DNA of 64,000 bases from an uncultured Acidobacteriota bacterium. Its GTDB lineage: Bacteria; Acidobacteriota; Terriglobia; UBA7540. This document shows, piece by piece, positions 1 through 14,214 of this stretch. Numbering within the stretch: the first letter of the stretch is position 1; each line of letters starts with the position of its first letter. The translations under genes and the position numbers were made by a program. Where the stretch lies: contig CAWDSK010000003.1 in assembly GCA_963804995.1 (NCBI GenBank), positions 928,001 to 992,000 of the forward strand. The letters run 5' to 3'. The notes under the pieces are model-generated. The model had not been told where the DNA came from. It saw only the letters and a program-made list of their open reading frames with translations, and made no database searches.

Positions 1-678
1 GCTCCGACCGCCGGTTGCACGATCAACGTTACATTCACGCCCACGGCGACTGGGAATCGAACGGGCACGCTGACCCTGACGGATAACGCGCCGGGCAGTC
101 CGCAATCGATTCAGCTTTCCGGCACAGGGATGGACTTTGCGATGTCAAGTTCCGCGATGAGCACTACCGTGGCGGCGGGGCAAACGGCAAATTACAGTAT
201 CACGGTGACGCCCGAGGGCGGGCTGAACCAAACGGTGAGTCTGACGTGTAGCGGCGCACCCACGCTCGCAACCTGCACGCTCACACCCGCTTCGGTCGCG
301 CTCAATGGATCGGGCTCCGCGCCGGTGGCGGTGGCCGTCTCAACCATGGCGGGGACGATGGCGCCACCCCTGGGAAAAGTTCCGCCACCGACGTTCCCGG
401 GATTCAGGGGAATGCTCTGGCTGTACGCTCTATTGCTACTGGCGGGCCTGGCGGCATTGGCCGGGGCCAAGAAGCCTCGAGCCGCCTACGGGCTTGCTTT
501 GTGCCTGGCAATGGTAATGCTCTGGAGCGCCTGCGAATTAGTGCAGGCGCCCCCAGCCACCCATACCCCCGGTACGCCCGCAGGTACTTTCCAGCTAGTG
601 GTAAACGCGACGGTGACCTCCGCCGCCTCGTCGACGAAAATCACGCACGCGCTCAACCTCTCCCTGACCGTGCAGTAG
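1..678 (+). CDS. Partial (5'-truncated) surface protein with Ig-like/choice-of-anchor-D-type domains and C-terminal membrane hairpin
   Basis: Frame open from base 1 (APTAGCTINVTFTPTATGNRTGTLTLTDNAPGSPQSIQLSGTG...) into the 130..678 ORF; same C-terminal layout as the 5761 and 9526 proteins. Confidence 0.85.
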   Translation, partial: APTAGCTINVTFTPTATGNRTGTLTLTDNAPGSPQSIQLSGTGMDFAMSSSAMSTTVAAGQTANYSITVTPEGGLNQTVSLTCSGAPTLATCTLTPASVALNGSGSAPVAVAVSTMAGTMAPPLGKVPPPTFPGFRGMLWLYALLLLAGLAALAGAKKPRAAYGLALCLAMVMLWSACELVQAPPATHTPGTPAGTFQLVVNATVTSAASSTKITHALNLSLTVQ

Positions 679-735
679 GGAGCTGGAACACTCGGCGTGC
701 TGATACAGGGTGTAGGTGTGCGAAGGGTACACCGC

Positions 736-1422
736 TCAAACGGCAAACTTGTAGCCTTGGCCGTGGACGGTCACGATGAACTTGGGTTGTTTAGGGTCGA
801 TTTCGAGCTTCTGGCGTAGCCAGGCAACGTGGACATCCACGGTGCGGGTGGAAGGAGCTGAGCTATAGCCCCAGACTTCCCGCAAAAGTTCATCGCGACT
901 GAGGGTTCTGCCCCGATGCTCGATGAGGTAGCGCAGGAGTTCAAATTCCTTGAAGGAAAGCTCGGCACGTTTGCCATCGCGCAGAACTTCCGTGCGCTGC
1001 AGGTCCACGCGAATAGGTCCCACGTCGTAGAACTCCACCCCGCCGCCCATTACCTCAGCGCCGCGCCGGAGCAAGGCTTCGACGCGCGCCAGCAATTCCA
1101 CCATTTCAAAGGGCTTGGTAAGGTAATCGTCGGCTCCGATTTTGAGCCCTTTAACCTTGTCACCCATCTGGGTCCGGGCGGTGAGCATCAGAATGGGCGT
1201 CACAATGCCGCGCCGCCGCAGCTCGCGGCACACCTCAAAACCCTCCATGCCGGGCAGCATCAAATCGAGGATGAGGAGATCGAAGCGACTGCGCGTGGCT
1301 AGCTCCAGGGCCTCAGCGCCATCGCCCGAGGCTTCGACCGCATAGCCTTCCTTGCGCAGGCGGTCGCTCAAGGTGACAACCAACCCGGGTTCGTCTTCCA
1401 CTAACAGGATGCGCGCACTCAT
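736..1422 (-). CDS. OmpR/PhoB-family DNA-binding response regulator
   Basis: Receiver motifs ILLVEDE, DLMLP, GADDYLTKPF; winged-helix TRTVDVHVAWLRQK, TVHGQGYKF. Confidence 0.95.
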   Translation of the reverse strand: MSARILLVEDEPGLVVTLSDRLRKEGYAVEASGDGAEALELATRSRFDLLILDLMLPGMEGFEVCRELRRRGIVTPILMLTARTQMGDKVKGLKIGADDYLTKPFEMVELLARVEALLRRGAEVMGGGVEFYDVGPIRVDLQRTEVLRDGKRAELSFKEFELLRYLIEHRGRTLSRDELLREVWGYSSAPSTRTVDVHVAWLRQKLEIDPKQPKFIVTVHGQGYKFAV

Positions 1423-1480
1423 ATCAGCTTAGGAATCTCCTCTTAGGGGTTGCGCAGGTCCGTTGGGATCGGCTAAGTGA

Positions 1481-1555
1481 CCCCCTCACCCGGCCCGCCC
1501 CGGCTGATGAAAACGCCGGTTGCGGTCCACCCTCTGTCGCCGCGGCGACCGAGGG
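1481..1555. repeat. REP-like palindromic repeat (CCCCTCACCC...CCACCCTCT...GAGGG family)
   Basis: Near-identical to 45497..45564, to the reverse complement of ~13570..13639 and to MITE cargo. Confidence 0.8.
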
Positions 1556-1639
1556 TTATAAATTCAAACTACCGTCCCCTGAAATTGCATATGCGAACAG
1601 TATTGCCACTTACACATAGCACCCCAGAAAGGCAAAATC

Positions 1640-3476
1640 TCACTCGGCGACGGGAAGGTGCAAGGTAAAAGCACTTCCCTCCCCGAGGCTGCTGGCCACG
1701 GTCAGTTTTCCTCCCATCGCCTCCACCGCTTCCTTGGCGAGACTCAGGCCCAGCCCCGCTCCATGTTTCTGCGAGGCGCGCGCGGCGCTTCCACGATAGA
1801 AGGGTTCAAAGATGTGCGGCAGTTCCTTCGGCTCAATCCCCTGCCCCCGGTCTTGCACGGTAATCAGAACCTCGCCGGCCTCAGGTCCCGAGCCCGGGTG
1901 GGCGCGAATGGCCATCCACTGGCCACCCGCACCATACTTCAAGGCATTGGTCATGAGATTTTGCAGGCAGCGGCCCAGGGCTTTGGGATCAGCCATGACC
2001 AGGGAAGATTTGGCGCAATCTCCTTCTCGACGGTGAAGCCGTTAGCCGTAGTCAAGTGGGCCAGGTCCGCGACGGCGGAATCAATGGTCTCCTCGACGGG
2101 GACGGGTTGCCGCTGGTAGTGCCCGCCCTCCCCGCGCGTGGCGGCAAAGAGCAGAACCTGCTCGATCATGGCGGCCAGGCGCTTGCCCTCGGTGCGAATG
2201 AGTGTGCCGTACTGTTTAACTTGCGGCCCGGAATCCACCACGCCGTCCGCAAGGTTTTCCGCCGCGGAACAAATCACACTCACCGGGGTGCGCAACTCGT
2301 GCGACACGCTGGCCACAAAATCCATCTGGAGCCTGGCAAGCCTCTGAACGCGCTGGCTCCAGACGAGGATTAATACCATGCTGACGGCCAGAACCAGCAA
2401 GGCTCCCAACCCCGTCAGCAGGTTGCGCCTCCAAGTGATGGCCACAGCCTGGCGCAAAGAGCCACTGCGGTGCCGGACCACCAGTTGCCAGTTGGCGGCC
2501 GCGGCGTCTGCAAAGATGGGAACGGGGAAGAAACCGCGCAGGGGCCCACCCAACTCACGCGAGGAGCCACCCGGCTCGCGAGGGGAGCGATTGAAATCTC
2601 CCCGAGGTGTCCGGAAGCGTCCGCGCCGTTCAGTAGGATTCCCTCGCCGGAGACCCTCCGGCCCCGGCTCAAAATCGGGACGGCGACGTGGGCCAAATAG
2701 AAATAGCGTCGCGTCCGCCGAAGCCACAAGATCCGCCGAAGGGTGGGGCTCCGACGCGTAAAGGAAATTAGGCGGGGCCGCGGCGTCTGCGATCGCTACT
2801 TGGTAAAAGAGACCCTCGGTTCCACCAAAGTAACGCTGCGCGAGTTCCGGAATGTAAACCTTCAGGAAGTAATCCCGGTTCAATTCTATGATCGCGAAAC
2901 CAGCCGAGGCGCAATCCGGCGGGCAACTGGCCTGGGGCGAAGCCGTTGTGAGGAGGGGATGGACCATGGCGAGCGACTGGCCCCGCAGTCGCCATCCAAA
3001 ATCAAAGCCCCGCCATGAGGGGACGCCTGCCAGGTCCGACATGTCACAGAGATCCCCGAGCCGAGATGGACATGCTTCCGCTTGAAAGCTGTAGGTCTGG
3101 GGATTGAACTCAGGAACGTATAACTTCCATTCTTTGGCTTTTCCCAGAGATAGAATTTCCCCACCAAGTCCCGGTGCTCGGAGGATCGTCCCCAGTCACC
3201 ACAATGCTGGGTATAGAGCGTCTCAAGATTATCCCCCGAGCCGAATCCTAGGTTCGAAAAGCCTCCACAGACCCCGGCCAGTTCAGCTCTCAAGCTCTCA
3301 CGAAACTCATTCATGCCTGTCTGGAGCGTGGCCTGCTGCCGCTGCCAGTCAGCGTTGCTGAGCTGATGGGTCCACCGGTACTGCAGAACCGCGAGCACGA
3401 CGAGCAGCGTGCCGAGGGCCACGATGAGGCCCAGGGATGCCAGCGACTGTTTGAGTTTGAACCCCATAACTTTCAT
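1640..3476 (-). CDS. Membrane sensor histidine kinase, split by two single-base frameshifts (~2003, ~3111)
   Basis: N-terminal TM helix (2886..3476 ORF); second TM and HisKA SVSHELRTP (1951..3042); HATPase NLMTNALKY, DRGQGI, GAGLGL (1640..1996). Adding one base at each junction gives ...FLEFNPQTY... and ...PNLPLVMADP... Confidence 0.88.
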
Positions 3477-3932
3477 AGACGTATCGGTCGCTCAACGCGC
3501 TACATGGGTTTCCGGCCTGACGTCGCACCGCAGGGTCGAAGGAAGAGGACCCGACCCTGAAGTTCACTCCTGCCATTTTACACCCGGCGGCCTGTCCCCA
3601 GGTTATCCGCCGGGAGGCCAGCGGGTACGAAAGACGGGCAGGGCGGGGATTGCCCACAGGCGTACAGGGCTTTCTCCGACACGGCGAAAAGTTCGGCGGG
3701 CTTACTTCTCATGGCAGGTCCTTAGGATATTGGCAGAGAGAATATACTGGCTACCGCCTCTGGTGACGGGCGTTTCAGGCTGGGGTCGATGCCAGTCGAA
3801 CCCGCGCTCCTAGCGGATGCGAGGGGCATGGAGAGGAGGGCTGACCTACCCCGAATTCTTCTGGTTTACCGGTTGGTTAAGCGGTGCGACCTCCCACAAT
3901 CATCCTCCGGTTAGAATCTTCCTTGGCGCGGG

Positions 3933-3962
3933 TTCACAAACTCTTGTTGTATTTGGTATAAT
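3933..3962 (+). promoter_or_regulatory. Candidate sigma-70 promoter (TTCACA-18-TATAAT, extended TG)
   Basis: TGGTATAAT at 3954-3962 in an AT-rich patch upstream of the co-oriented 4470-13407 genes. Confidence 0.4.
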
Positions 3963-4469
3963 CCTTGCGGTATTGTTCTGTGCGCGGGACTTGGTAAGAG
4001 ATTCACTGCAATCCAAAATCCAGGCTTTCTGGTCAGAGTGACGCAGAGTAGCGCCGCAGGGAAGCGTTAAGATTTTTGAAAAAAATTCACATGCCGCTTC
4101 AAACCCCAACGGGAGCGATACGCATCTGACCTTGCGGTGGTCACTGACCGGACCATCTTACACTGGGGAATTTGAATGAGCCGGCCGCTACTCGCAGCCC
4201 CGGCAGAAGGGGTGGCGCGCAGTTCCGGGTTTCCCTACTGCGCACACCGCGCAAGCCTTATGACCGGAGAACAAGAAGTGTGGTCCGGTGTCAACAAGTT
4301 TGGTTTTCGGCTTTAGAAGGATGCAACGGATCGTCATTCAAGCCACCCGACCAGGATTAGAAGTTGGCGAGGTGAAGGGCGCGCCCGGTTCTGTGATCAG
4401 GAAGCCCGCCTGCCTAGGGTCGGTGACTCCTCTTCAACAAGAAACTCGTTTGGGAAAGGGATACACGAA

Positions 4470-5648
4470 GTGAAGCCAATTTATACGCTCCTCCTCGTCA
4501 CGCTGTTGATGGCACATCCTGGAGCCGCCCAATCAACGCCCGATCAAAAACCCGCCGCGCCGGATACTACGGCCGCACCGGCTGCGCCCCCCGCGCCAGA
4601 TAAGACTGCCGCGCCTGACAAAACCGCCGCGCCGGAAGAAACCGAGAAGACGGGAAAACTCCACAAGCTGAATGTATTCCATAAGCGGAAGAAGACCCCC
4701 AAGGCGGAAAAATCCGCCAAAGCGGAGAAACCTGCCAAGGCGGAGAAACCCGCCAAGGCCGAAAAAGCCAAGGCTGAAAACCCCGATTCCCCCGGACCCA
4801 CTGCCTTTGTGCAGGTCGAAGGTAGCCACTTTAATATGGGCACGGTCCTCACCTACGACTTCAACTTCGGATACAGGTTCAATGAGCATGTCTCCGCCGA
4901 TTTCGGCATTCCGATCTATTCCACTCGCACTCCGTTCTCCGTCATCACCACCAAAGATTGGCGGGATACGACGATCCTTGGGGCGCCGTACATTGACGTA
5001 CGGTACGACACCAAGCGCGGCGACACGAACATCACCTCCATCCTGACGGGATCGGCCGGATTCAATATGGTCAAGACTTATTCCAACGGCCGGATGACAG
5101 TGGACTGGTTTAACCACTTTGATCGCAACTACCAGATCATGAACTACGACGCCAAGTTCACACCCTTTCTGAATTTCGGCTTCGGCACCGGCACGGTAGA
5201 CCGGCAGGTGATGCCCCGGCCGTACGAAGTCGCCCGCCCCTATGAAACCCTGGGCTACATCGGCAATGGTGAAGTCGGCGGGGATTTCACGGTCTGGAAA
5301 CATTACAAGTTGGGAGGGTCCGCCTACGGCCTTACCCCGGTGGGACCGCAGAAGATCTATAGCCGGCTGGTGTCGCCGGATTCGCTTTTGGGGGGCGATG
5401 GGCACCACAACCGTTTTTGGGATGAATTCTTTGAAACAGGCGGCGAGTATGTCAACACCTATGGCGGGGGGCCCTCGCGAATTGCCCGTGACAATGGCTA
5501 CGCCGCATGGCTTGAGGTCACCCGGTACAAAAATCTTAGCATTGAGGTCGCCTATACGAGGAGCGTGCATTACGATTATGGCGCCGCTTTTATCATGGTG
5601 CGCTTTAACTTGACGAACATTTTGCGGAATTTGACGACCGGCGAGTAG
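4470..5648 (+). CDS. Exported hypothetical protein, probable outer-membrane beta-barrel with low-complexity N-terminus
   Basis: Signal peptide; PDKTAAP and KAEKPA repeats; alternating aromatic/Gly strands (YDFNFGYRFN, LNFGFGTG, LSIEVAY, FIMVRFNL). Confidence 0.65.
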   Translation: MKPIYTLLLVTLLMAHPGAAQSTPDQKPAAPDTTAAPAAPPAPDKTAAPDKTAAPEETEKTGKLHKLNVFHKRKKTPKAEKSAKAEKPAKAEKPAKAEKAKAENPDSPGPTAFVQVEGSHFNMGTVLTYDFNFGYRFNEHVSADFGIPIYSTRTPFSVITTKDWRDTTILGAPYIDVRYDTKRGDTNITSILTGSAGFNMVKTYSNGRMTVDWFNHFDRNYQIMNYDAKFTPFLNFGFGTGTVDRQVMPRPYEVARPYETLGYIGNGEVGGDFTVWKHYKLGGSAYGLTPVGPQKIYSRLVSPDSLLGGDGHHNRFWDEFFETGGEYVNTYGGGPSRIARDNGYAAWLEVTRYKNLSIEVAYTRSVHYDYGAAFIMVRFNLTNILRNLTTGE

Positions 5649-5760
5649 CGGACACGTCGCCTCAAGACACATAGAAGCAAGAGCATGATTCCGTGGGTCG
5701 CCCGTCGCAAGACTGCTATCCAACCAACCGAGCGACCCCGAAGTAACGACAAGAGGACCT

Positions 5761-8700
5761 TTGAAAACTGAGAGTCGGTTCAGATTATTCCTCCTTCCTT
5801 TCGTGGTTGGAATTTGCCTGGTGCATTCCAGCCCGGGGTGGGCTGGCGACCCCGCCTCCCCCGACAAGATTCTTGCGCCTTCCCCCCTCCGGTCAGCTAG
5901 CTTGCCGCTCGGTTTCGAGGCCAACCAGGGGCAGGTGGATGAACAGGTCAAATACTTAGCCCGGGGACAGGGTTACACACTGTTCCTGACCCCTCGCGCC
6001 GCAGTACTCGGCCTACGCAGCGAGGGCGCCGGAAAGCCCACCGAATGGCTGCGCCTTGCCCTGGAAGGCACTGCCGCCGCACCCGCTATCACCGGGGAAA
6101 ACCCACTCCCTGGCCAGAGCCATTATTTCGTAGGCAACGATCCGGCCCGGTGGCGGACCAATATCCCCACTTTTGCCCGGGTCCGCTACGAGCAAGTATA
6201 TCCAGGGATAGATTTGATCTATTACGGCCGGCAAGGACGCCTGGAAAACGATTTTGAAGTGGCCGCCGGAACCAATCCCAAAAGGATTTCCTGGCGGCTG
6301 GAAGGGGCGAAACAGGTCCGCGTTGACTCGACTGGGGACCTCGTCCTGACCGTGGGCGGAAATGAGGTGCGCCTGCAACAGCCGCGGGCGTATCAACTGG
6401 ACGGAGAGCAAGAGCGGGAAATCCCCATCCGTTACCGGGTTCATGGTCAGAGAGTCAGCTTCGCGCTGGGCAAGTATAATCGGCATCAGAAACTGGTCAT
6501 TGACCCTGTCCTTACTTACTCAACTCTCCTCGGCGGCAGTGGTGGCGACATCGCGTACGGCATGGCCGTCGACTCATTGGGCAACACCTATGTTACGGGC
6601 GTCACGGGCTCCATCAACTTCCCCACCACGGCCACCGCTTTTCAGGCGACGTACGGGGGTGACGGCGACGTTTTTGTGACCAAGTTCAATCCCACTGCCA
6701 CCGGGGTCCTCTTCTCGACTTACCTGGGCGGCGCGGGAGCTGACTCGCCCAGCGGCCTCCTGCTCAACTCATCTGGAAATATCTATATCGTTGGTTCCAC
6801 TTCATCGTTGAACTTCCCCACCACGGCCACCGCTCCCCAGCCAGCTTATGGCGGCGGTGGAAGTGATGCCTTCCTGGTGGCCCTCAAACCTTCTGGCTCA
6901 TCGCTGCTTTACTCCACCTATCTGGGAGGAACCGCGGCGGATTACGGCATGGCACTGGCGCTCGATGCCACCGGGAATGCTTACATCACTGGGTATACGC
7001 TCTCCACCGACTTTCCCACCTTTAATCCTATCCAGCTTGGCAATGATGGCTCCTATGATGCCTTCGTGGCGGAGGTCGACCCCACCGGAACGAAATTGCT
7101 CTATTCCACCTACCTGGGAGGTTCGAGCGCCGATTATGGCACCGGTATCGCGGTCGACGCCTCCGGGAATATTTATGTCGGCGGGTACACATTCTCAACG
7201 AACTTCCCCACCCAAAGCGCTTTTCAAAGTACGCTGGCCGGTGGCTCCGACATCTTCATCACTGAGCTGAATCCGGCCTCCTCGACATTAGTGTTTTCCA
7301 CGTATTTGGGGGGAAGCTCGAATGAAACACTCTCCGCCCTCGTTCTAGATTCACACGGAAGCATCTACCTGACGGGCGACACGCAATCCAACAATTTCCC
7401 TGTGACCGCCAATGCTTACCAGGCCACGAATCACGGTGGGCCAGGAGACGCTTTTATCACCAAGCTCACACCCGGCGCCTCAACTCTGGTTTTCTCGACG
7501 TATTTCGGGGGCAGTGGGGTGGACCACGCGGCTGCGTTTGCGATCGACTCAGCGGGGGATGTTTACCTGACAGGATTCACGCAGTCGACTGACTTTCCTC
7601 TGGTCGATGCATTCCAAAAGATTCTGGGCATCGCCGGCGCAGGCTCCTGCGGGTCAACTTCCCTGATGAATTCGCCCCCCCCGGTGGTTTGTGCTGACGC
7701 CTTTGTCACCAAGTTCAACCCCTCGGGGGTCCCTATCTATTCCAGCTATTTGGGCGGAGAAAATACGGACGCCGGCCAGGCGATTGTGGTTGACTCCTTG
7801 GGCTCGGCCTATGTGGCGGGCGGTACGGAGTCACCCAACTTCCCAGTCACTCCTGGTGCCTACCAGTGGTCCTACTTGGGCGGCGACACGTTTAACAACG
7901 TTTTCGTGGTTAAGATCGGTCCTCAGGACGCCCCCTCCTTGGCGTTAAGCCCTCAGCAGATCAACTTTGGGAATCAGGCGCTCAACACCCCCAGTAATCC
8001 AACTACCGTTACGTTAACGAATGAGGGCAGTGCGGCGTTGGCGATCCAGGGTATCACTGCGGGCCAAGGGTTCTCCCAAACCAACACCTGTGGCACTTCG
8101 CTAGCGGCGGGGGGAAGTACGTGTAGTCTCCAAGTTACCTTCACGCCTACCCAAGCCGGTCCGCAAACCGGTGAAGTCACTATTACTGACAACGCGGCGG
8201 GCAGCCCCCACTTCATTACAGTCTCGGGGAGCGGAATCCTCTCGGCCGGGTCATTGAGCGTGTCGCCGACCACGCTGGCATTCCCGGCACAAGCCGTCAC
8301 CACCACCAGCTCTCCGCAAACGGTACTGATTGTTAATAATGGAACGTTGGCCGTCACCATTACCAACATCGCTGCAGCAGGATTCTTCGAACAAACAAAC
8401 ACCTGTGGGACTCTCCCCCTGGTCCTGAACGTGGGCTCTTCCTGCACGGTCTCCATAACCTTTACACCCACCGGGAGCGGAAACTTTACGGGCAGTCTGA
8501 CCATCACATCCAACGCTGCGAATAGTTCGTCAGTGTCGCTTTCCGGGACCGGCATTCCCATCTTCAATCTTTCTGCCAATACGCGGTCAAGCGTCCTTGT
8601 CATCGGCACCACCTCCACAACGTTCACCGTTTCTGCCTCGGCCCCGAGTTCATTCATCGGAAGCATCTCACTCGCCTGCAGTGCGTCGGGTTCCACATCA

Positions 8701-9420
8701 ACCACCTGCAGTTTCAGTCCGGCCGCGATCACGGGTGGGCAGTCCAGCACGGTCACGGTGAAAGGCCTCTCGGCAAGCACGGCGAGTCCCTTGAATGTCA
8801 CGATCACGGGGACCTATATAAATCAATCCGCCTCCGTTGCCCTCACCATCTTTCTTGCGGATTTCGCACTCTCCGCCACACCCTCGGGGGCTACGGTCAC
8901 GGCCGGTAATAACGCCACTTACACAATTACCGTCACGCCCTCGAATGGGTTTAGTCAGGTCGTGCTCCTGAGTTGTGGCAACCTGCCACAAGATGCTGTC
9001 TGCTATTTTGCGCCGCCTGGTTTAACTCTGAACGGTTCAACCTTTGCCACGAGCGTCCTAACCATAACCACCGTAACGCAGTCGGGAGTGGTGCGCCAAC
9101 CCCCGCGCGGTGGTATTCCACCCGGATTCCGTTGGTGGGCGTTGATGCTGGCGACATTAGTTCTGGTAATCGGGTGGGCGGCAGGCGCCGGCAGGTTGGC
9201 ACGGGGTCTTCGGCCGCGGCTTCGGGTGGTGGTTTTGTTAACTGCAATCATCCTGGTGGCCTTGGGAGTGGCGTGTCAAAATTATTACAACCCGATCAAC
9301 ATCACTCCCGTGGTGAATGGCACCCCTTCAGGGAACTTCACCATCCCGATCATCGGAACTCTGGGAAGTGACAATAGCGTTAGGCGGGCTACAACGGTCA
9401 ACCTCTCAGTTGCACCGTAA
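5761..9420 (+). CDS. SBBP beta-propeller-repeat surface protein with Ig-like domains
   Basis: Signal peptide; FEANQGQ N-terminal domain; repeated YSTYLGG...D.G..IAVD..GN.YVTG.T.S.NFP units; Ig repeats (VTFTPT, TITDNAAGSP); C-terminal TM hairpin. Confidence 0.9.
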   Translation: MKTESRFRLFLLPFVVGICLVHSSPGWAGDPASPDKILAPSPLRSASLPLGFEANQGQVDEQVKYLARGQGYTLFLTPRAAVLGLRSEGAGKPTEWLRLALEGTAAAPAITGENPLPGQSHYFVGNDPARWRTNIPTFARVRYEQVYPGIDLIYYGRQGRLENDFEVAAGTNPKRISWRLEGAKQVRVDSTGDLVLTVGGNEVRLQQPRAYQLDGEQEREIPIRYRVHGQRVSFALGKYNRHQKLVIDPVLTYSTLLGGSGGDIAYGMAVDSLGNTYVTGVTGSINFPTTATAFQATYGGDGDVFVTKFNPTATGVLFSTYLGGAGADSPSGLLLNSSGNIYIVGSTSSLNFPTTATAPQPAYGGGGSDAFLVALKPSGSSLLYSTYLGGTAADYGMALALDATGNAYITGYTLSTDFPTFNPIQLGNDGSYDAFVAEVDPTGTKLLYSTYLGGSSADYGTGIAVDASGNIYVGGYTFSTNFPTQSAFQSTLAGGSDIFITELNPASSTLVFSTYLGGSSNETLSALVLDSHGSIYLTGDTQSNNFPVTANAYQATNHGGPGDAFITKLTPGASTLVFSTYFGGSGVDHAAAFAIDSAGDVYLTGFTQSTDFPLVDAFQKILGIAGAGSCGSTSLMNSPPPVVCADAFVTKFNPSGVPIYSSYLGGENTDAGQAIVVDSLGSAYVAGGTESPNFPVTPGAYQWSYLGGDTFNNVFVVKIGPQDAPSLALSPQQINFGNQALNTPSNPTTVTLTNEGSAALAIQGITAGQGFSQTNTCGTSLAAGGSTCSLQVTFTPTQAGPQTGEVTITDNAAGSPHFITVSGSGILSAGSLSVSPTTLAFPAQAVTTTSSPQTVLIVNNGTLAVTITNIAAAGFFEQTNTCGTLPLVLNVGSSCTVSITFTPTGSGNFTGSLTITSNAANSSSVSLSGTGIPIFNLSANTRSSVLVIGTTSTTFTVSASAPSSFIGSISLACSASGSTSTTCSFSPAAITGGQSSTVTVKGLSASTASPLNVTITGTYINQSASVALTIFLADFALSATPSGATVTAGNNATYTITVTPSNGFSQVVLLSCGNLPQDAVCYFAPPGLTLNGSTFATSVLTITTVTQSGVVRQPPRGGIPPGFRWWALMLATLVLVIGWAAGAGRLARGLRPRLRVVVLLTAIILVALGVACQNYYNPINITPVVNGTPSGNFTIPIIGTLGSDNSVRRATTVNLSVAP

Positions 9421-9525
9421 GCAGCCGCCCCTTATTACATACGCTCATCGCGCTGATCAACGCCAGGCGAGTGCGAAAAAAAGAGAAAGACTATCCAAGA
9501 TTGATGAATTCCGAGGAGGCCCGTC

Positions 9526-12500
9526 GTGAGTGGAAGTAGCCGTTTTGCCATCTGTTCCCTGGGCGCAGACCAGAGTACGAGTAAAAGACGCGCACGCATC
9601 TCCCGTTGGTTGCTGTTGATGGCAATTTTGCTGGGCGCGGCATTTGTTCAGAAAGATCGAGGCGCTTTCACTCCCCCCACCCAACCTCGTTCTAACGCCC
9701 AATGGGCGCGCCTGTACGCTGCGCTTCCGTTGAGCTTTGAGGCGAACCGGGGGCAGACGGACCCCAGCGTGAAGTTCCTCTCGCGGGGACGCCGCTCCAC
9801 GTTGTTCCTTACCGGGCAGGAAGCTGTGCTGACACTGCGGAATCAGCCGGCAGCAGCCCAAAGTCAGAAGTCACGTGTCAGTCCTCGGCCCCCAGCCACT
9901 CCTGACTCTGTTCTCCGTTTGCGCTTGCTCGGTGCAAACGCCGACGCCGCCGTGGAAGGAAGCGACGAATTACCCGGCAAAGCCAACTACTTCCTCGGCA
10001 ATGATCCCAGCAAGTGGCGCAGGAATGTTCCAACCTACGCCAAGGTCAGGTACCGGAACCTTTATCCCGGGGTCGATCTGGTTTATTACGGCAACCAAGG
10101 CGGGGAACTCGAGTATGACTTTGTGGTAGCCCCCGGCGCTGACCCAAACAGCATCGCACTGGAAGTCGGGGCGCACGGCCACTCCCCCCTCCGGATCGCC
10201 GAGAATGGCGATCTCCAGGTTCGCCTGGAGGGTGGCGAGGTTAGCCTGCACCGGCCGACCATTTACCAGCCGTCCTCCGGTAATCTTCAAATGATTGCGA
10301 AGGACGGACCACGGACACCGGTTGAGGGGCATTACATCCTCACTGCCGCAAACCAAGTTCGCTTTGCCCTAAGCGCCTATGACCACACCAAGCCGCTGGT
10401 CATTGACCCCGTTTTGGCTTACGCCACCTACGTGGGTGGCAGTGGAGGTGACATCGGGTACGCTATCGCCGTCGATTCCTCCTTCGACGCCTACGTGGCG
10501 GGCTTTACGGCCTCTTCGAATTTCCCGACCAGCAGCGGCGCGAATAAAAAGGCGTACGGAGGTAATGGCGATGCCTTCGTCCTGAAAATGAATTCCTCCG
10601 GGACTGCCTTGCTCTATTCCACCTATATCGGTGGCAGCGGTGCAGACAGCGCCACAGCCATTGCGGTCAGCGCCGGCAATGCCTTTATCACCGGCAGCAC
10701 CAACTCCACAGACTTCCCGATCGCCCCCAATACGTCGATCGCGAAGGCCTTCCAGACCACTTACGGAGGCGGCGCGACCAATGCCTTCGTCGTCCAACTC
10801 GATACCACTGGATCAAGCCTCGTCTACTCCTCCTATCTGGGCGGTAACGGTGCAGACGCAGGCCAGGGGATCGCGGTGGATTCCGCCGGCAATGCCTACA
10901 TCACCGGCTCGACGCAATCTTCAAACTTTCCCGTTCTCAATTTCTTCCAACAGTACAGCGGCGGCTCCACGGATGCTTTTGTTACCAAGGTGAATTTCAC
11001 CGGCGAGGCGATTCTTAATTCCACCTATTTGGGAGGTTCCCAAGCGGATGTCGCCCAAGCTATCCAGGTGGACACTTCCAGCCCACCCAATATTTACCTT
11101 GCTGGCTACACCTATTCGCCGAACTTCCCTACGGCCCCTGCCACTCCCCTCCAGGGAACGATCGGGGGCGGAGCGGATGCTTTCGTAGCCGAGCTCAAAG
11201 GTGATTTCTCAGCCCTTATTTTTTCGACTTTCTTGGGTGGCTCAAGCTATGACCAGGCTAATGGCATCGCCTTGGACAGTTCCGGCAACGTCTACGTTGC
11301 GGGCTATACGTCTTCGACTAATTTCCCCACTGTCCTCGGGTCATTCCAGACCGCGCTCGAAGGCTCCCAAAACGCTTTCATTTGCAAATTGAATCCCGCG
11401 GGGTCCTCCCTGCTCTACTCGACGTATCTTGGCGGTAGCGGGACCGATCAAGCGAACGCCATCGCCGTGATACCCAGCGGAGCCTCCGCTGGAGTTGCGT
11501 TCGTTACGGGCTACACGTTATCCAGTAACTTCCCCACACACAATCCAATTCAAAGCGTCCTGGGACTCAGTAATAACACCTTTTGCCAGGGGCTTCCCTG
11601 CGCCGACGCTTTCGTCACCCAGCTCAATGCCGCCGGAAATGCCTTGACCTACTCCACCTACCTGGGTGGCAATGGACCCGACTTCGGCCAATCCATCGCG
11701 GTAGATAGTACCGGCGACCCCTACATCACGGGCAGCACATCTTCCACTAATTTCCCGGCCGTTTCCCCGATCGTTCCGGGAACCAATACCGTTTCGGGAC
11801 CCCCTTATGTGCCCCCCTATAAGTCCACGCTGACCGGTGCGTCGGGCAACGCGTTTGTGGCCAAAATTGACGTCGCCAATACCCCCACGATCTCCATCAC
11901 TCCTGCCAGTTTGACCTTCGGCAACGAAACTTTAAGCGTCACCAGCGCCTTGCAGCAGATAACCATCGTCAACCCGAGTACCACGAACCTGGCGATTACC
12001 TCGATTCAAATTGCACCGATCGGCACGTACAACACCATCTTTACGGAGACGGACAACTGCGTGGGGACCATCCCCGCGGGCGGCGGCTACTGCACGATGA
12101 ACGTGGCCTTTACGCCCGCCTACGCCGGTGCGGTGACCGATCAAATTACCATTACTGACAATGCGGGCGGAACGGCTGGCACCCAGCAAACCATTCCCCT
12201 GAGCGGATCAGGGGTGACGGCCGCAACGGCAGTCACGGTCGCACCCACCAGCCTTTCCTTCTCCAACCAGAATGTGGGGACCGTCAGCCCACCCCAAAGC
12301 GTTACCATTACCAACACAGGTACGGCCACGTTGAACATCACCCAGATTTCAACCAGTAGCCCTGAATTCACGCAGACCAACACCTGCAGCGCCCTGCTCG
12401 ACACCCTGGCCGTCGGGCAAAGTTGCAGCGTCAGCGTGACTTTCTCGCCCATCGCCAGCGGCACACGCAGCGGAACTTTGACTATTGCGGATACCGCCGT

Positions 12501-13407
12501 AGGCAGCCCCCAAACCATCGCTCTTTCCGGAATAGCGCTCGCCGCTTTCTCGCTGACTACCCCCAGCTCATCCATCACGGTGAACCCTGTACTGATTGGC
12601 GCCACCCAGACAACCTTCCTCATCGAGGCGATAGGGTCCACGAGTTTCAACGGCTCCATCACCCTGGCCTGCTCCTCTGGCACCACGTGCGCCTTCAGCA
12701 ATAACCCCATCTTTATTGGCAAAACCAGTACGATGACCGTCAGCAACCTCACGACTTCGATGCCCAACCCCTACAACTTTTCAGTTACCGGGACCAGCGG
12801 TTCACAAAACACCTCGTTTCCAGTAAGTCTTTTGTTTCAAGATTTCACGCTTTCGGCCACCCCGGCGCTCGTCACGATTCAGGCAGGAGCGACTGCGGGT
12901 TACACGATCATCGCCAACCCCCTCAACTTGTTCAACAAGCAAATAACACTAACTTGTAGTACCGGACAGCCGCCCGCTTCCACCTGCGTCTTTTCGAATG
13001 TCTCCCCCACTCTGAACGGCACCAGCGCCACGAACATTTCCCTTTCTCTCCAAACTGTGAAATATGTTGCTCCAACCCATGCCCCGCCTGGCTACCCCTT
13101 CGGCAAACTTCCACCGATGATATTGGGGGTCCTGGGGCTCTTGGCGCTTGCCTCTCTGGCGTTGGGAGTCCGGCGACGCGCCCACGGCGGCCGGCTTGGA
13201 ATGACCTGGCTGGGTGTACGACTGGCCATAATCAGCCTCATTATGGTGCTTGATTTAGCGCTGGGAAGCTGTCGTCCGAACACCCTGCTGCAGTCCGGCA
13301 CAACCACGGGCGGCTACACGATTACCATCAGCGGCACGTTGGTTGCGAATACCGCGGTGGTGCGGACAACGAGGCTGAATCTGGAAGTGACTTCTTCCAT
13401 ACCTTAA
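9526..13407 (+). CDS. SBBP beta-propeller-repeat surface protein with Ig-like domains (paralog of 5761..9420)
   Basis: Same domain order: FEANRGQ, YSTYLGG repeats, Ig repeats, TM hairpin. Confidence 0.9.
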   Translation: MSGSSRFAICSLGADQSTSKRRARISRWLLLMAILLGAAFVQKDRGAFTPPTQPRSNAQWARLYAALPLSFEANRGQTDPSVKFLSRGRRSTLFLTGQEAVLTLRNQPAAAQSQKSRVSPRPPATPDSVLRLRLLGANADAAVEGSDELPGKANYFLGNDPSKWRRNVPTYAKVRYRNLYPGVDLVYYGNQGGELEYDFVVAPGADPNSIALEVGAHGHSPLRIAENGDLQVRLEGGEVSLHRPTIYQPSSGNLQMIAKDGPRTPVEGHYILTAANQVRFALSAYDHTKPLVIDPVLAYATYVGGSGGDIGYAIAVDSSFDAYVAGFTASSNFPTSSGANKKAYGGNGDAFVLKMNSSGTALLYSTYIGGSGADSATAIAVSAGNAFITGSTNSTDFPIAPNTSIAKAFQTTYGGGATNAFVVQLDTTGSSLVYSSYLGGNGADAGQGIAVDSAGNAYITGSTQSSNFPVLNFFQQYSGGSTDAFVTKVNFTGEAILNSTYLGGSQADVAQAIQVDTSSPPNIYLAGYTYSPNFPTAPATPLQGTIGGGADAFVAELKGDFSALIFSTFLGGSSYDQANGIALDSSGNVYVAGYTSSTNFPTVLGSFQTALEGSQNAFICKLNPAGSSLLYSTYLGGSGTDQANAIAVIPSGASAGVAFVTGYTLSSNFPTHNPIQSVLGLSNNTFCQGLPCADAFVTQLNAAGNALTYSTYLGGNGPDFGQSIAVDSTGDPYITGSTSSTNFPAVSPIVPGTNTVSGPPYVPPYKSTLTGASGNAFVAKIDVANTPTISITPASLTFGNETLSVTSALQQITIVNPSTTNLAITSIQIAPIGTYNTIFTETDNCVGTIPAGGGYCTMNVAFTPAYAGAVTDQITITDNAGGTAGTQQTIPLSGSGVTAATAVTVAPTSLSFSNQNVGTVSPPQSVTITNTGTATLNITQISTSSPEFTQTNTCSALLDTLAVGQSCSVSVTFSPIASGTRSGTLTIADTAVGSPQTIALSGIALAAFSLTTPSSSITVNPVLIGATQTTFLIEAIGSTSFNGSITLACSSGTTCAFSNNPIFIGKTSTMTVSNLTTSMPNPYNFSVTGTSGSQNTSFPVSLLFQDFTLSATPALVTIQAGATAGYTIIANPLNLFNKQITLTCSTGQPPASTCVFSNVSPTLNGTSATNISLSLQTVKYVAPTHAPPGYPFGKLPPMILGVLGLLALASLALGVRRRAHGGRLGMTWLGVRLAIISLIMVLDLALGSCRPNTLLQSGTTTGGYTITISGTLVANTAVVRTTRLNLEVTSSIP

Positions 13408-13467
13408 ACCCTAGAAGCTTTGCTCGGCGCTGCGCCCCGGACTACTCGTCCGGGGCGCGCTGCCACC

Positions 13468-13650
13468 GTCGGGAAAAGACCCCTCACCCGACCTCGTCCC
13501 TCGGCCACCCTCTCCCCAAGGGAGAGGGAAAGGCTTTCACCGCGCGGTAGCGCCGCCAGAGAAACCCCCGCCCTCTCCCCGGGGAGAGGGTGGACCGCCG
13601 CCGGCGTTTTCATCAGCCGGGGCGGGACGGGTGAGGGGTCTTTTCCCGGC
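13468..13650. repeat. Inverted doublet of CCCCTCACCC-family REP-like units
   Basis: Arms GTCGGGAAAAGACCCCTCACCCG (13468-13490) and CGGGTGAGGGGTCTTTTCCCGGC (13628-13650); internal CCCTCTCCC..GGGAGAGGG hairpins. Confidence 0.8.
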
Positions 13651-13883
13651 CAACGAACCGTTACTCCAGAAGATGTCAAACTCTTACTGCCTCCCCGGCA
13701 GAGCCGGGGGACCTCCCGACGAATCAGGCAGTGCCCTCCTCTAACCACCCTGATCAACGCTTGATTGTTTTCCCGACCCCGTGGGTAAGTGTTATTGGCA
13801 TCCCGCGAATGTGATAATATTCGTTCTCGCCGTAAGTATTCTGAGGCAGCATCCTGGAGTGAAGACCTGGGTCACTTTGGAAG

Positions 13884-14096
13884 CTAGCGTGGTGTCCCGT
13901 GTTAGAGTTGACAATGGGTAGAACCCCCTCACCCGTCTGGCCTCGGCTGATGAGAACGCCTCGGCCAGCCACCCTCTCCCCCAAAGGGGCGAGGGCAAGA
14001 GAATTAACTCTCCCCTCGGTCGCCGCGGCGACAGAGGGGCTGGGGGGTGAGGGGGTCGGACAGCCTTGTCAAATATTAACCGGGACACCACACTAG
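13884..14096. mobile_element. MITE with IS630-like ends, copy 1
   Basis: CTAG at both ends; ~30-bp imperfect terminal inverted repeats (CTAGCGTGGTGTCCCG...CGGGACACCACACTAG); second copy at 35462..35672. Confidence 0.8.
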
Positions 14097-14214
14097 CAAT
14101 ATTGATGTAATACGGTAATCTCCGCACGGGGTACCATCACGGATGGGATGCGTGATGTTACCTTTTCGTGGCCGCTTCAAGTTACACCCACTTCACATCC
14201 CCGAGAGGATGACT

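Follow-up and report, generated by a model that had tools for sequence, protein, structure and literature searches.

The 64,000-nucleotide stretch of an uncultured Acidobacteriota bacterium of the class Terriglobia analysed here, which will be referred to as the window, encodes three large proteins with a common C-terminal module, and this raises the question of whether the module anchors them and by which route. The proteins end at positions 678, 9420 and 13407 of the plus strand, as borne out by the open reading frame (ORF) listing of the window, and are designated W1, W2 and W3. The first-pass annotation, made from the sequence alone, had suggested that a membrane hairpin with an internal lipobox is inserted into the last immunoglobulin-like (Ig) domain, and had taken the module for a candidate for an unrecognised surface-anchoring system. 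We find that the module is real, well conserved and structurally as guessed there, yet already catalogued as a putative anchor.

The common ending of the three proteins was clearly confirmed. All of them finish with the same order of parts, namely the start of an Ig domain, a proline-rich linker, a hydrophobic helix (helix 1), a basic loop, a second helix (helix 2) ending at [GAS]-C, and two β-strands. The cysteine codons are located at 532, 9274 and 13270, followed by tails of 48, 48 and 45 residues, and the modules of W2 and W3 are 33% and 24% identical to that of W1. W1 (1..678) represents the 3′ end of a gene for a protein of ~1500 amino acids (aa) with a DUF7948/SBBP propeller and a stalk of ASH (choice-of-anchor D) Ig domains. 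The window edge cuts through its frame, for which 1573 codons were counted from stop to stop in the genome. The gene begins upstream, so that position 130, with which the originally described region begins, is not the start of the protein. In the full sequence of W1, DUF7948, SBBP and ASH-type motifs were recognised by eye, as in W2 and W3. The N-terminal part of its split Ig domain (strands A-E, with a Cys pair) extends over 133..345, assigned by an AlphaFold2 model and a profile of intact Ig repeats; helix 1, basic loop (469-480) and helix 2 occupy 412..531; and the tail (532..675, 48 aa), comprising the lipobox Cys (532), a linker and the last two Ig strands, was assigned by the NCBIfam model NF058595, the AlphaFold2 model and Ig superposition. 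W2 (5761..9420) is an exported protein of 1219 aa composed of DUF7948, an SBBP propeller, two ASH Ig domains, an intact Ig domain (from 8563) and the split-Ig module, which consists of the N-terminal Ig part (8860..9078), the hairpin (9133..9273, basic loop 9193-9225) and a tail of 48 aa (9274..9417). Its tandem paralogue W3 (9526..13407, 1293 aa) shows the same architecture, with the N-terminal Ig part at 12841..13056, a hairpin with a long basic loop and an Asp in helix 2 (13117..13269), and a tail of 45 aa (13270..13404). In W2 and W3 both Ig parts were placed with the intact-repeat profile, the tails comprising the final pair of strands together with the lipobox Cys. An intact, contiguous Ig domain directly before the module, which had been described as a general feature, was found in W2 and W3 but not in W1, where an ASH/choice-of-anchor D Ig domain precedes it instead. 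A hydrophobic N-terminal segment is visible in all three proteins. Among the internal hydrophobic segments preceded by Lys or Arg in the six-frame ORFs of the genome, only 52 of 714 (7.3%) are followed by [GAS]C at the spacing of the module, which argues against a chance occurrence in three out of three proteins.

The claim that the system was unrecognised did not hold. NF058595.1 ('invert_tail', NCBIfam release 20.0, June 2026), described as 'lipo-invert putative C-terminal anchoring domain-containing protein', recognises W1 (51.1 bits) and W2 (44.8 bits) above its cut-off of 37 bits, and a comparison with known sorting signals, which the first-pass annotation had itself proposed as a possible refutation, thus leads to a described family. 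W3 stays below the cut-off with 20.7 bits for the whole protein and 24.6 bits for the tail alone (profile positions 4-112); having the same anatomy and being a paralogue of W2, it is a divergent relative. In W1-W3 the matches end at the stop codon or not more than 5 residues before it, and all 59 modules aligned in this study match the model at E ≤ 0.01. In all three proteins its 113 positions cover the hairpin with the Cys and the tail as well as the last stretch of strand five, but the N-terminal part of the split Ig domain is for the most part not included. The comparison was made by the name and one-line description of the model, whose comment may or may not already hold the idea of a split Ig domain, and the anchor is labelled 'putative' by NCBI. 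Pfam is without a model for the module. Literature searches on the names of NF058595, on internal lipoboxes and on acidobacterial surface proteins, made outside subscription journals and bioRxiv supplements, yielded nothing on the module, and in the accessible part of the preprint by Haft on sorting signals (10.1101/2023.06.07.544157) Acidobacteria, lipobox and invert are not mentioned.

The position of the hairpin within the last Ig domain, as originally suggested, is supported by profile comparison and structure prediction. A profile of 98 positions was built from 150 intact Ig repeats; as these were gathered with split-module profiles, the comparison is partly circular. On W1-W3 its positions 1-70 align before the hairpin and positions 68-98 in the tail, and it covers the preceding domain of W2 and W3 contiguously over positions 2-95. 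The AlphaFold2 model, calculated with an alignment of 59 rows, reached a predicted local distance difference test (pLDDT) value of 88 overall and of 97-98 on the two tail strands, with the two helices at 94-134. In this model the N-terminal part and the tail fold as one Ig domain, the tail strands completing the fold as anticipated. Residues 4-184 of the model superpose on single Ig domains (VIA-align; best Z 12.9, root mean square deviation (rmsd) 2.0, 103 aligned residues); a Foldseek search with the model gave no match at E ≤ 0.001. When the N-terminal part and the tail were modelled as two separate chains, a score of 0.51 was obtained compared to 0.00 for the best control, with 95% agreement of contacts and a partner pLDDT of at least 67. 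This is weak support, as scores of ≤ 0.60, obtained for 18 of 157 solved pairs and for both mismatched pairs that passed, are more often wrong unless pairing is likely beforehand; the mark itself was reached by 116 of the 157 solved and 2 of 215 mismatched pairs, and likeness to solved Ig folds may drive the pass.

A library of the 150 best proteins, ranked mostly by tandem intact repeats, points in the same direction. Among 1262 Ig N-terminal parts, 1017 were followed by a tail match, 984 of them contiguously and 33 after a gap of at least 60 residues; the 245 without a tail match were taken in bulk and not one by one. In 27 of the 33 gaps a hydrophobic insert was present, each with the order basic-hydrophobic-[GAS]C and each located in the last Ig domain, and the remaining six turned out to be missed β-domains. 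These predictions support an insertion of the hairpin into one of the loops of the final Ig domain, whose last two strands are supplied by the tail. A Cys pair was detected in the N-terminal part of 26 of the 27 split domains. Among intact repeats it occurs in 58 of 105 when only these proteins are considered and in 174 of all 984, counts that include kin and are not independent; from the sequences, this enrichment fits an exported half-domain that would need bracing. In the paralogue C3:1106272-1110363 (locus L003) of the same genome, a complete ASH Ig domain follows the lipobox Cys and separates it from the two strands at the end, so that the predicted lipopeptide would comprise about 150 residues. 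The final strands are apparently kept across this inserted domain, and two library proteins (P0079 and P0130) carry a similar extra domain with the strands still terminal.

Conservation of the Cys was evaluated in three sets. From the best NF058595 hits 60 loci were selected, of which 58 gave a module with the seed profile; two modules were excluded (one with an extended tail, one badly trimmed), and the remaining 56 together with the three window modules make up the 59-module alignment. At a mean column identity of 23%, the Cys is its only invariant column. Likewise the Cys is kept in 69/69 W2 orthologues and 27/27 library modules, always after G, A or S, though all sets were chosen with profiles containing the Cys, which favours invariance, the latter two being less biased than the first. 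In the 59 modules position -1 is G, A or S throughout, the uncharged run comprises 12-21 residues and the upstream net charge is +1 to +7. The basic loop contains on average 4.3 Lys/Arg and 0.1 Asp/Glu. A scan of the last 250 residues of the library proteins that ignored the Cys yielded 29 proteins with a membrane segment. Lipobox and tail were found in 24 of them, and the other five have a single segment without tail strands; none represents a hairpin plus tail lacking the Cys.

Non-canonical residues occur at position -3, as had been pointed out for two of the three lipoboxes. The strict lipobox pattern is [LVI][ASTVI][GAS]C, which fits none of the three window proteins and only 20 of the 59 modules. 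Since a rough set of N-terminal lipoprotein candidates from this genome likewise fits it in only 20 of 52 cases, we do not regard this as an objection. At position +2, which governs inner-membrane retention in E. coli, Gly or Ser is present in 46 of the 59 modules, and E, N or D in 67 of the 69 W2 orthologues.

Compared with an ordinary type II signal, which is read by Lgt and LspA, the module shares the basic region, 12-21 uncharged residues, G/A/S at -1, the Cys and a Gly/Ser-rich linker, with the single Asp in the hydrophobic region of W3 as a departure. It differs in its location, over 1000 residues into the protein and downstream of a further membrane helix, with the Cys 45-48 residues from the C-terminus, and in that the predicted lipoprotein would consist of only two strands of a domain. 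Taken together, we suggest that the module is a portable C-terminal lipid anchor using the ordinary Lgt/LspA route, with lipopeptide tethering and a second cut, an account to which we give a little under an even chance. A cassette of 60-95 residues (linker, helix 1, basic loop, helix 2 and lipobox) sits, as seen in silico, between the fifth and the last two Ig strands. Judged from the sequence, the N-terminal signal would export the body through Sec until helix 1 stops the transfer; the basic loop would remain cytoplasmic and helix 2 would re-export the tail, so that both Ig parts could fold together outside, the Cys pair presumably bracing the N-terminal one. Given the known chemistry of Lgt and LspA, basic loop, helix 2 and [GAS]-C could be read as a type II signal, whereupon the Cys would be diacylglycerylated and the chain cut before it, releasing a lipopeptide of 35-56 residues. 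Lipopeptide tethering requires a second cut, a point missing from the first-pass annotation, because cleavage by signal peptidase II (LspA) alone would leave the body on the hairpin. In this weakest step of the proposal a general protease, either intramembrane or periplasmic, would sever the chain at helix 1 or upstream of it and so remove the hairpin. The body would then be held only by β-strand complementation to its own lipidated tail. Oriented inversely to a normal lipoprotein, with the N-terminus facing away from the membrane, it could move to the outer membrane or the surface. As a two-helix hairpin already anchors on its own, loss of the hairpin best explains why lipobox and split fold are conserved together.

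Several points weigh against this proposal, in addition to the selection of the alignment sets. Lipidation and both cuts are inferred only, the modules contain no conserved cleavage motif before helix 1, and the papers searched provided no precedent for Lgt and LspA acting behind an upstream membrane helix. The acidic +2 residues of the W2 orthologues may indicate retention in the inner membrane. Furthermore, W3 (13222-13272, Asp) and its orthologue in genome G204 (L125:11748-15512) carry an acidic residue in helix 2, seven residues before the Cys, which the first-pass annotation had not noted for W3. Candidates for a dedicated enzyme did not follow the module either. In favour of the proposal, the genome contains Lgt, one LspA in the usual ileS-lspA context, two LolA-like genes and three secretins; it also has five CPBP and five rhomboid genes, and a search with PF00795 did not single out an Lnt gene. 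LspA is single-copy in 26/26 genomes with and without the module, rhomboids occur in 2-6 copies in both, and none of the three CPBP genes (out of five) profiled over the 26 genomes tracks it. Clustering of the neighbours in 40 loci (2390 ORFs, 50 of them with the module) revealed five clusters present in four genomes and one in three, and no recurrent protease among them. Divergent rhomboid-like genes of family f3 (L129:2193-3182, L130:1997-2836, L131:2138-2971 and L132:2120-2953), which lack the scripted motif of active rhomboids, adjoin a peptidase gene in three of the four loci; the type, assigned without a tree, is also present in genomes without the module. A weak second Lgt-like gene (L083:167-2409) beside an insertion sequence (IS)/integrase fragment, the tandem partner of which we take to be phosphatidylserine-decarboxylase-like, was set aside.

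With neither a cleavage motif nor a dedicated enzyme found, retention on the hairpin stays a serious rival, although we consider it the less likely of the two. In that case Lgt would modify the Cys, with or without cleavage by LspA, and the hairpin would keep the body on the inner membrane, facing the periplasm, with lipid and split fold only clamping the last Ig domain against the membrane. This reading needs no extra enzyme, and none turned up among LspA, the rhomboids, the three CPBP genes and the 40 neighbourhoods; it also agrees with the missing motif before helix 1, with the acidic +2 residues of the W2 group and with a median hydrophobicity of helix 1 (2.1) that resembles that of helix 2 (2.3). 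Nevertheless, the lipobox and the split fold would be redundant with the hairpin, and the passengers, up to 4000 residues long with propeller, FG-GAP and protease domains, look like surface proteins. Cleavable helices often hold Pro, and helix 1 contains it in 52 of 89 modules.

It is rather improbable that the Cys is the substrate not of Lgt and LspA but of a dedicated sortase-like enzyme, in the way myxosortase acts on MYXO-CTERM. The module does resemble such signals in its copy number (1-25 per genome), its restriction to a lineage and its unrelated passengers, a pattern that is usual for dedicated sorting systems according to the accessible part of Haft 2023 (10.1101/2023.06.07.544157), and the five CPBP and five rhomboid genes could supply candidates. 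However, neither the tested CPBP genes nor the rhomboid family follows the module, the 40 loci contain no neighbouring enzyme, and the topology (basic, hydrophobic, [GAS]C) is that of a type II signal and the reverse of MYXO-CTERM. As far as MYXO-CTERM is described in the accessible parts of the sources, both elements are C-terminal, portable and multi-copy, have an invariant Cys and are proposed to give a lipid anchor once a membrane helix has been removed. In MYXO-CTERM the Cys comes before the only helix and remains with the body, whereas here it follows the hairpin and would end on a separate peptide; MYXO-CTERM consists of a Cys motif, one helix and a terminal Arg-rich cluster, the module of helix, basic loop, helix, Cys and folded tail. 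MYXO-CTERM is also without a defined lipobox in the accessible part of PMC11980579, and no cognate CPBP was found for the module among the genes profiled. Because of the position of the Cys and the lack of a defined lipobox in MYXO-CTERM, the module does not belong to that family.

A plain two-helix anchor in which nothing is processed, and whose Cys is either left over from a small lipoprotein fused to it long ago or a disulfide partner, is very unlikely: the rarity of the strict lipobox and the Asp in helix 2 of W3 would fit, but the Cys and the G/A/S before it are retained in otherwise poorly conserved sequences, the Cys-blind scan of 29 proteins found no hairpin plus tail lacking it, and there is no third conserved Cys for pairing. 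We attach hardly any probability to an internal translation start from which the tail would be made as a small lipoprotein of its own, binding the large protein in trans. Loop, helix 2 and Cys do suffice for a complete type II signal, and the two parts were, weakly, modelled together as separate chains; but in the 59-sequence consensus no Met is conserved within the basic loop or upstream of it, and helix 1 is conserved in frame.

Completion of a fold by added strands has a parallel in pili. In chaperone-usher and type V pili an Ig fold is completed by donor-strand complementation, and type V pilins are lipoprotein precursors. The module likewise has an incomplete Ig fold completed by added β-strands; it differs in that two strands are provided by the tail of its own chain and in the last domain only, and no chaperone, usher, polymerising subunit or processing protease recurs near the module in the 40 loci.

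The range of the module was sampled within the Acidobacteriota, and the source labels of the matches read Terriglobia and Acidobacteriota. Six full modules are present in the genome under study. In a sample of the phylum 24 of 201 genomes matched, including all 17 listed genomes of the same class, and in other classes six genomes gave one weak match each. In a sample of 151 genomes of the class, the module was detected in 21/21, 21/21, 22/22 and 1/1 genomes of four families, usually in several copies (1-25), compared to single matches in 6 of 85 genomes of the other nine families; among further genomes of one of these nine, two out of three carried it. The module is therefore universal in the sampled genomes of three Terriglobia families (64/64) and rare elsewhere. 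Its passengers are mutually unrelated, and by eye a hydrophobic segment at the N-terminus is recognisable in most of the 50 module ORFs from the 40 loci. Two module genes of the genome (C6:1001408-1005283 and C3:376429-380625) are broken over several frames, one of them beside IS elements; similar genes in G255, which belongs to the same genus, are single ORFs.

Directly upstream of W2 and W3, a gene on the plus strand (4470..5648) encodes an unannotated, predicted outer-membrane β-barrel of 12 strands with a Lys/Ala/Pro-rich N-terminal linker. Its model (pLDDT 70) has a FapF/COG4313-like fold, matching most closely FapF (Z 18.3, rmsd 3.7, 208 aligned residues), a COG4313 channel (Z 17.3) and KdgM (Z 17.0), and no sequence relative was found in the PDB. 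The barrel gene is located directly upstream of, and co-oriented with, a W2-type SBBP gene in the 11 closest of 20 loci, our own included; of the other nine, one is cut by the contig end and eight are distant and without a W2-type neighbour. Four distant homologues (L074, L076, L077 and L079) are followed instead by a gene for a small secreted protein of low complexity. The tandem arrangement of W2 and W3 is found again across the genus, and together with the barrel in another genus. As a universal translocon the barrel was rejected, since it does not follow the module across the class: it is present in 14/21, 5/21 and 8/22 genomes of three module-rich families and also in mostly module-free ones. 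It is thus a partner of the W2-W3 operon and not the translocon of the system. Between W1 and the barrel, the minus strand encodes an OmpR-type response regulator (736-1422) and a sensor kinase split into three overlapping ORFs (1640-1996, 1951-3042 and 2886-3476) by frameshifts or assembly errors. Downstream of W3, the translations of a G+C-rich intergenic stretch (13420-14127) look like repeated palindromic elements, presumably REP-like.

As the tail is already catalogued, the three copies in the window are of little weight as a discovery, and the interest lies in the mechanism. In its widest form, our proposal would be a sortase-free C-terminal surface display of Terriglobia, in which Lgt, LspA and a general protease leave proteins of 100-400 kDa hanging non-covalently from their own lipopeptide of 45 residues. 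A disulfide would brace the complex, the +2 residue would decide between inner and outer membrane, and the tail could accommodate extra domains. No lipoprotein route would have been shown before to hold a protein at its far end. We advance this only tentatively and consider it less likely than not. The analysis provides a directly testable mechanism, specifying the exact cut site, the mass of the tail, the position of the split, the disulfide of the split domain and the requirement for a second cut. If Lgt and LspA do act on an internal signal behind a membrane helix, lipoprotein predictors would miss a whole class of about 1 to 25 large proteins per genome in the commonest soil acidobacterial families. 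The cassette would then represent a portable device for attaching a lipid anchor to the C-terminus of any protein.

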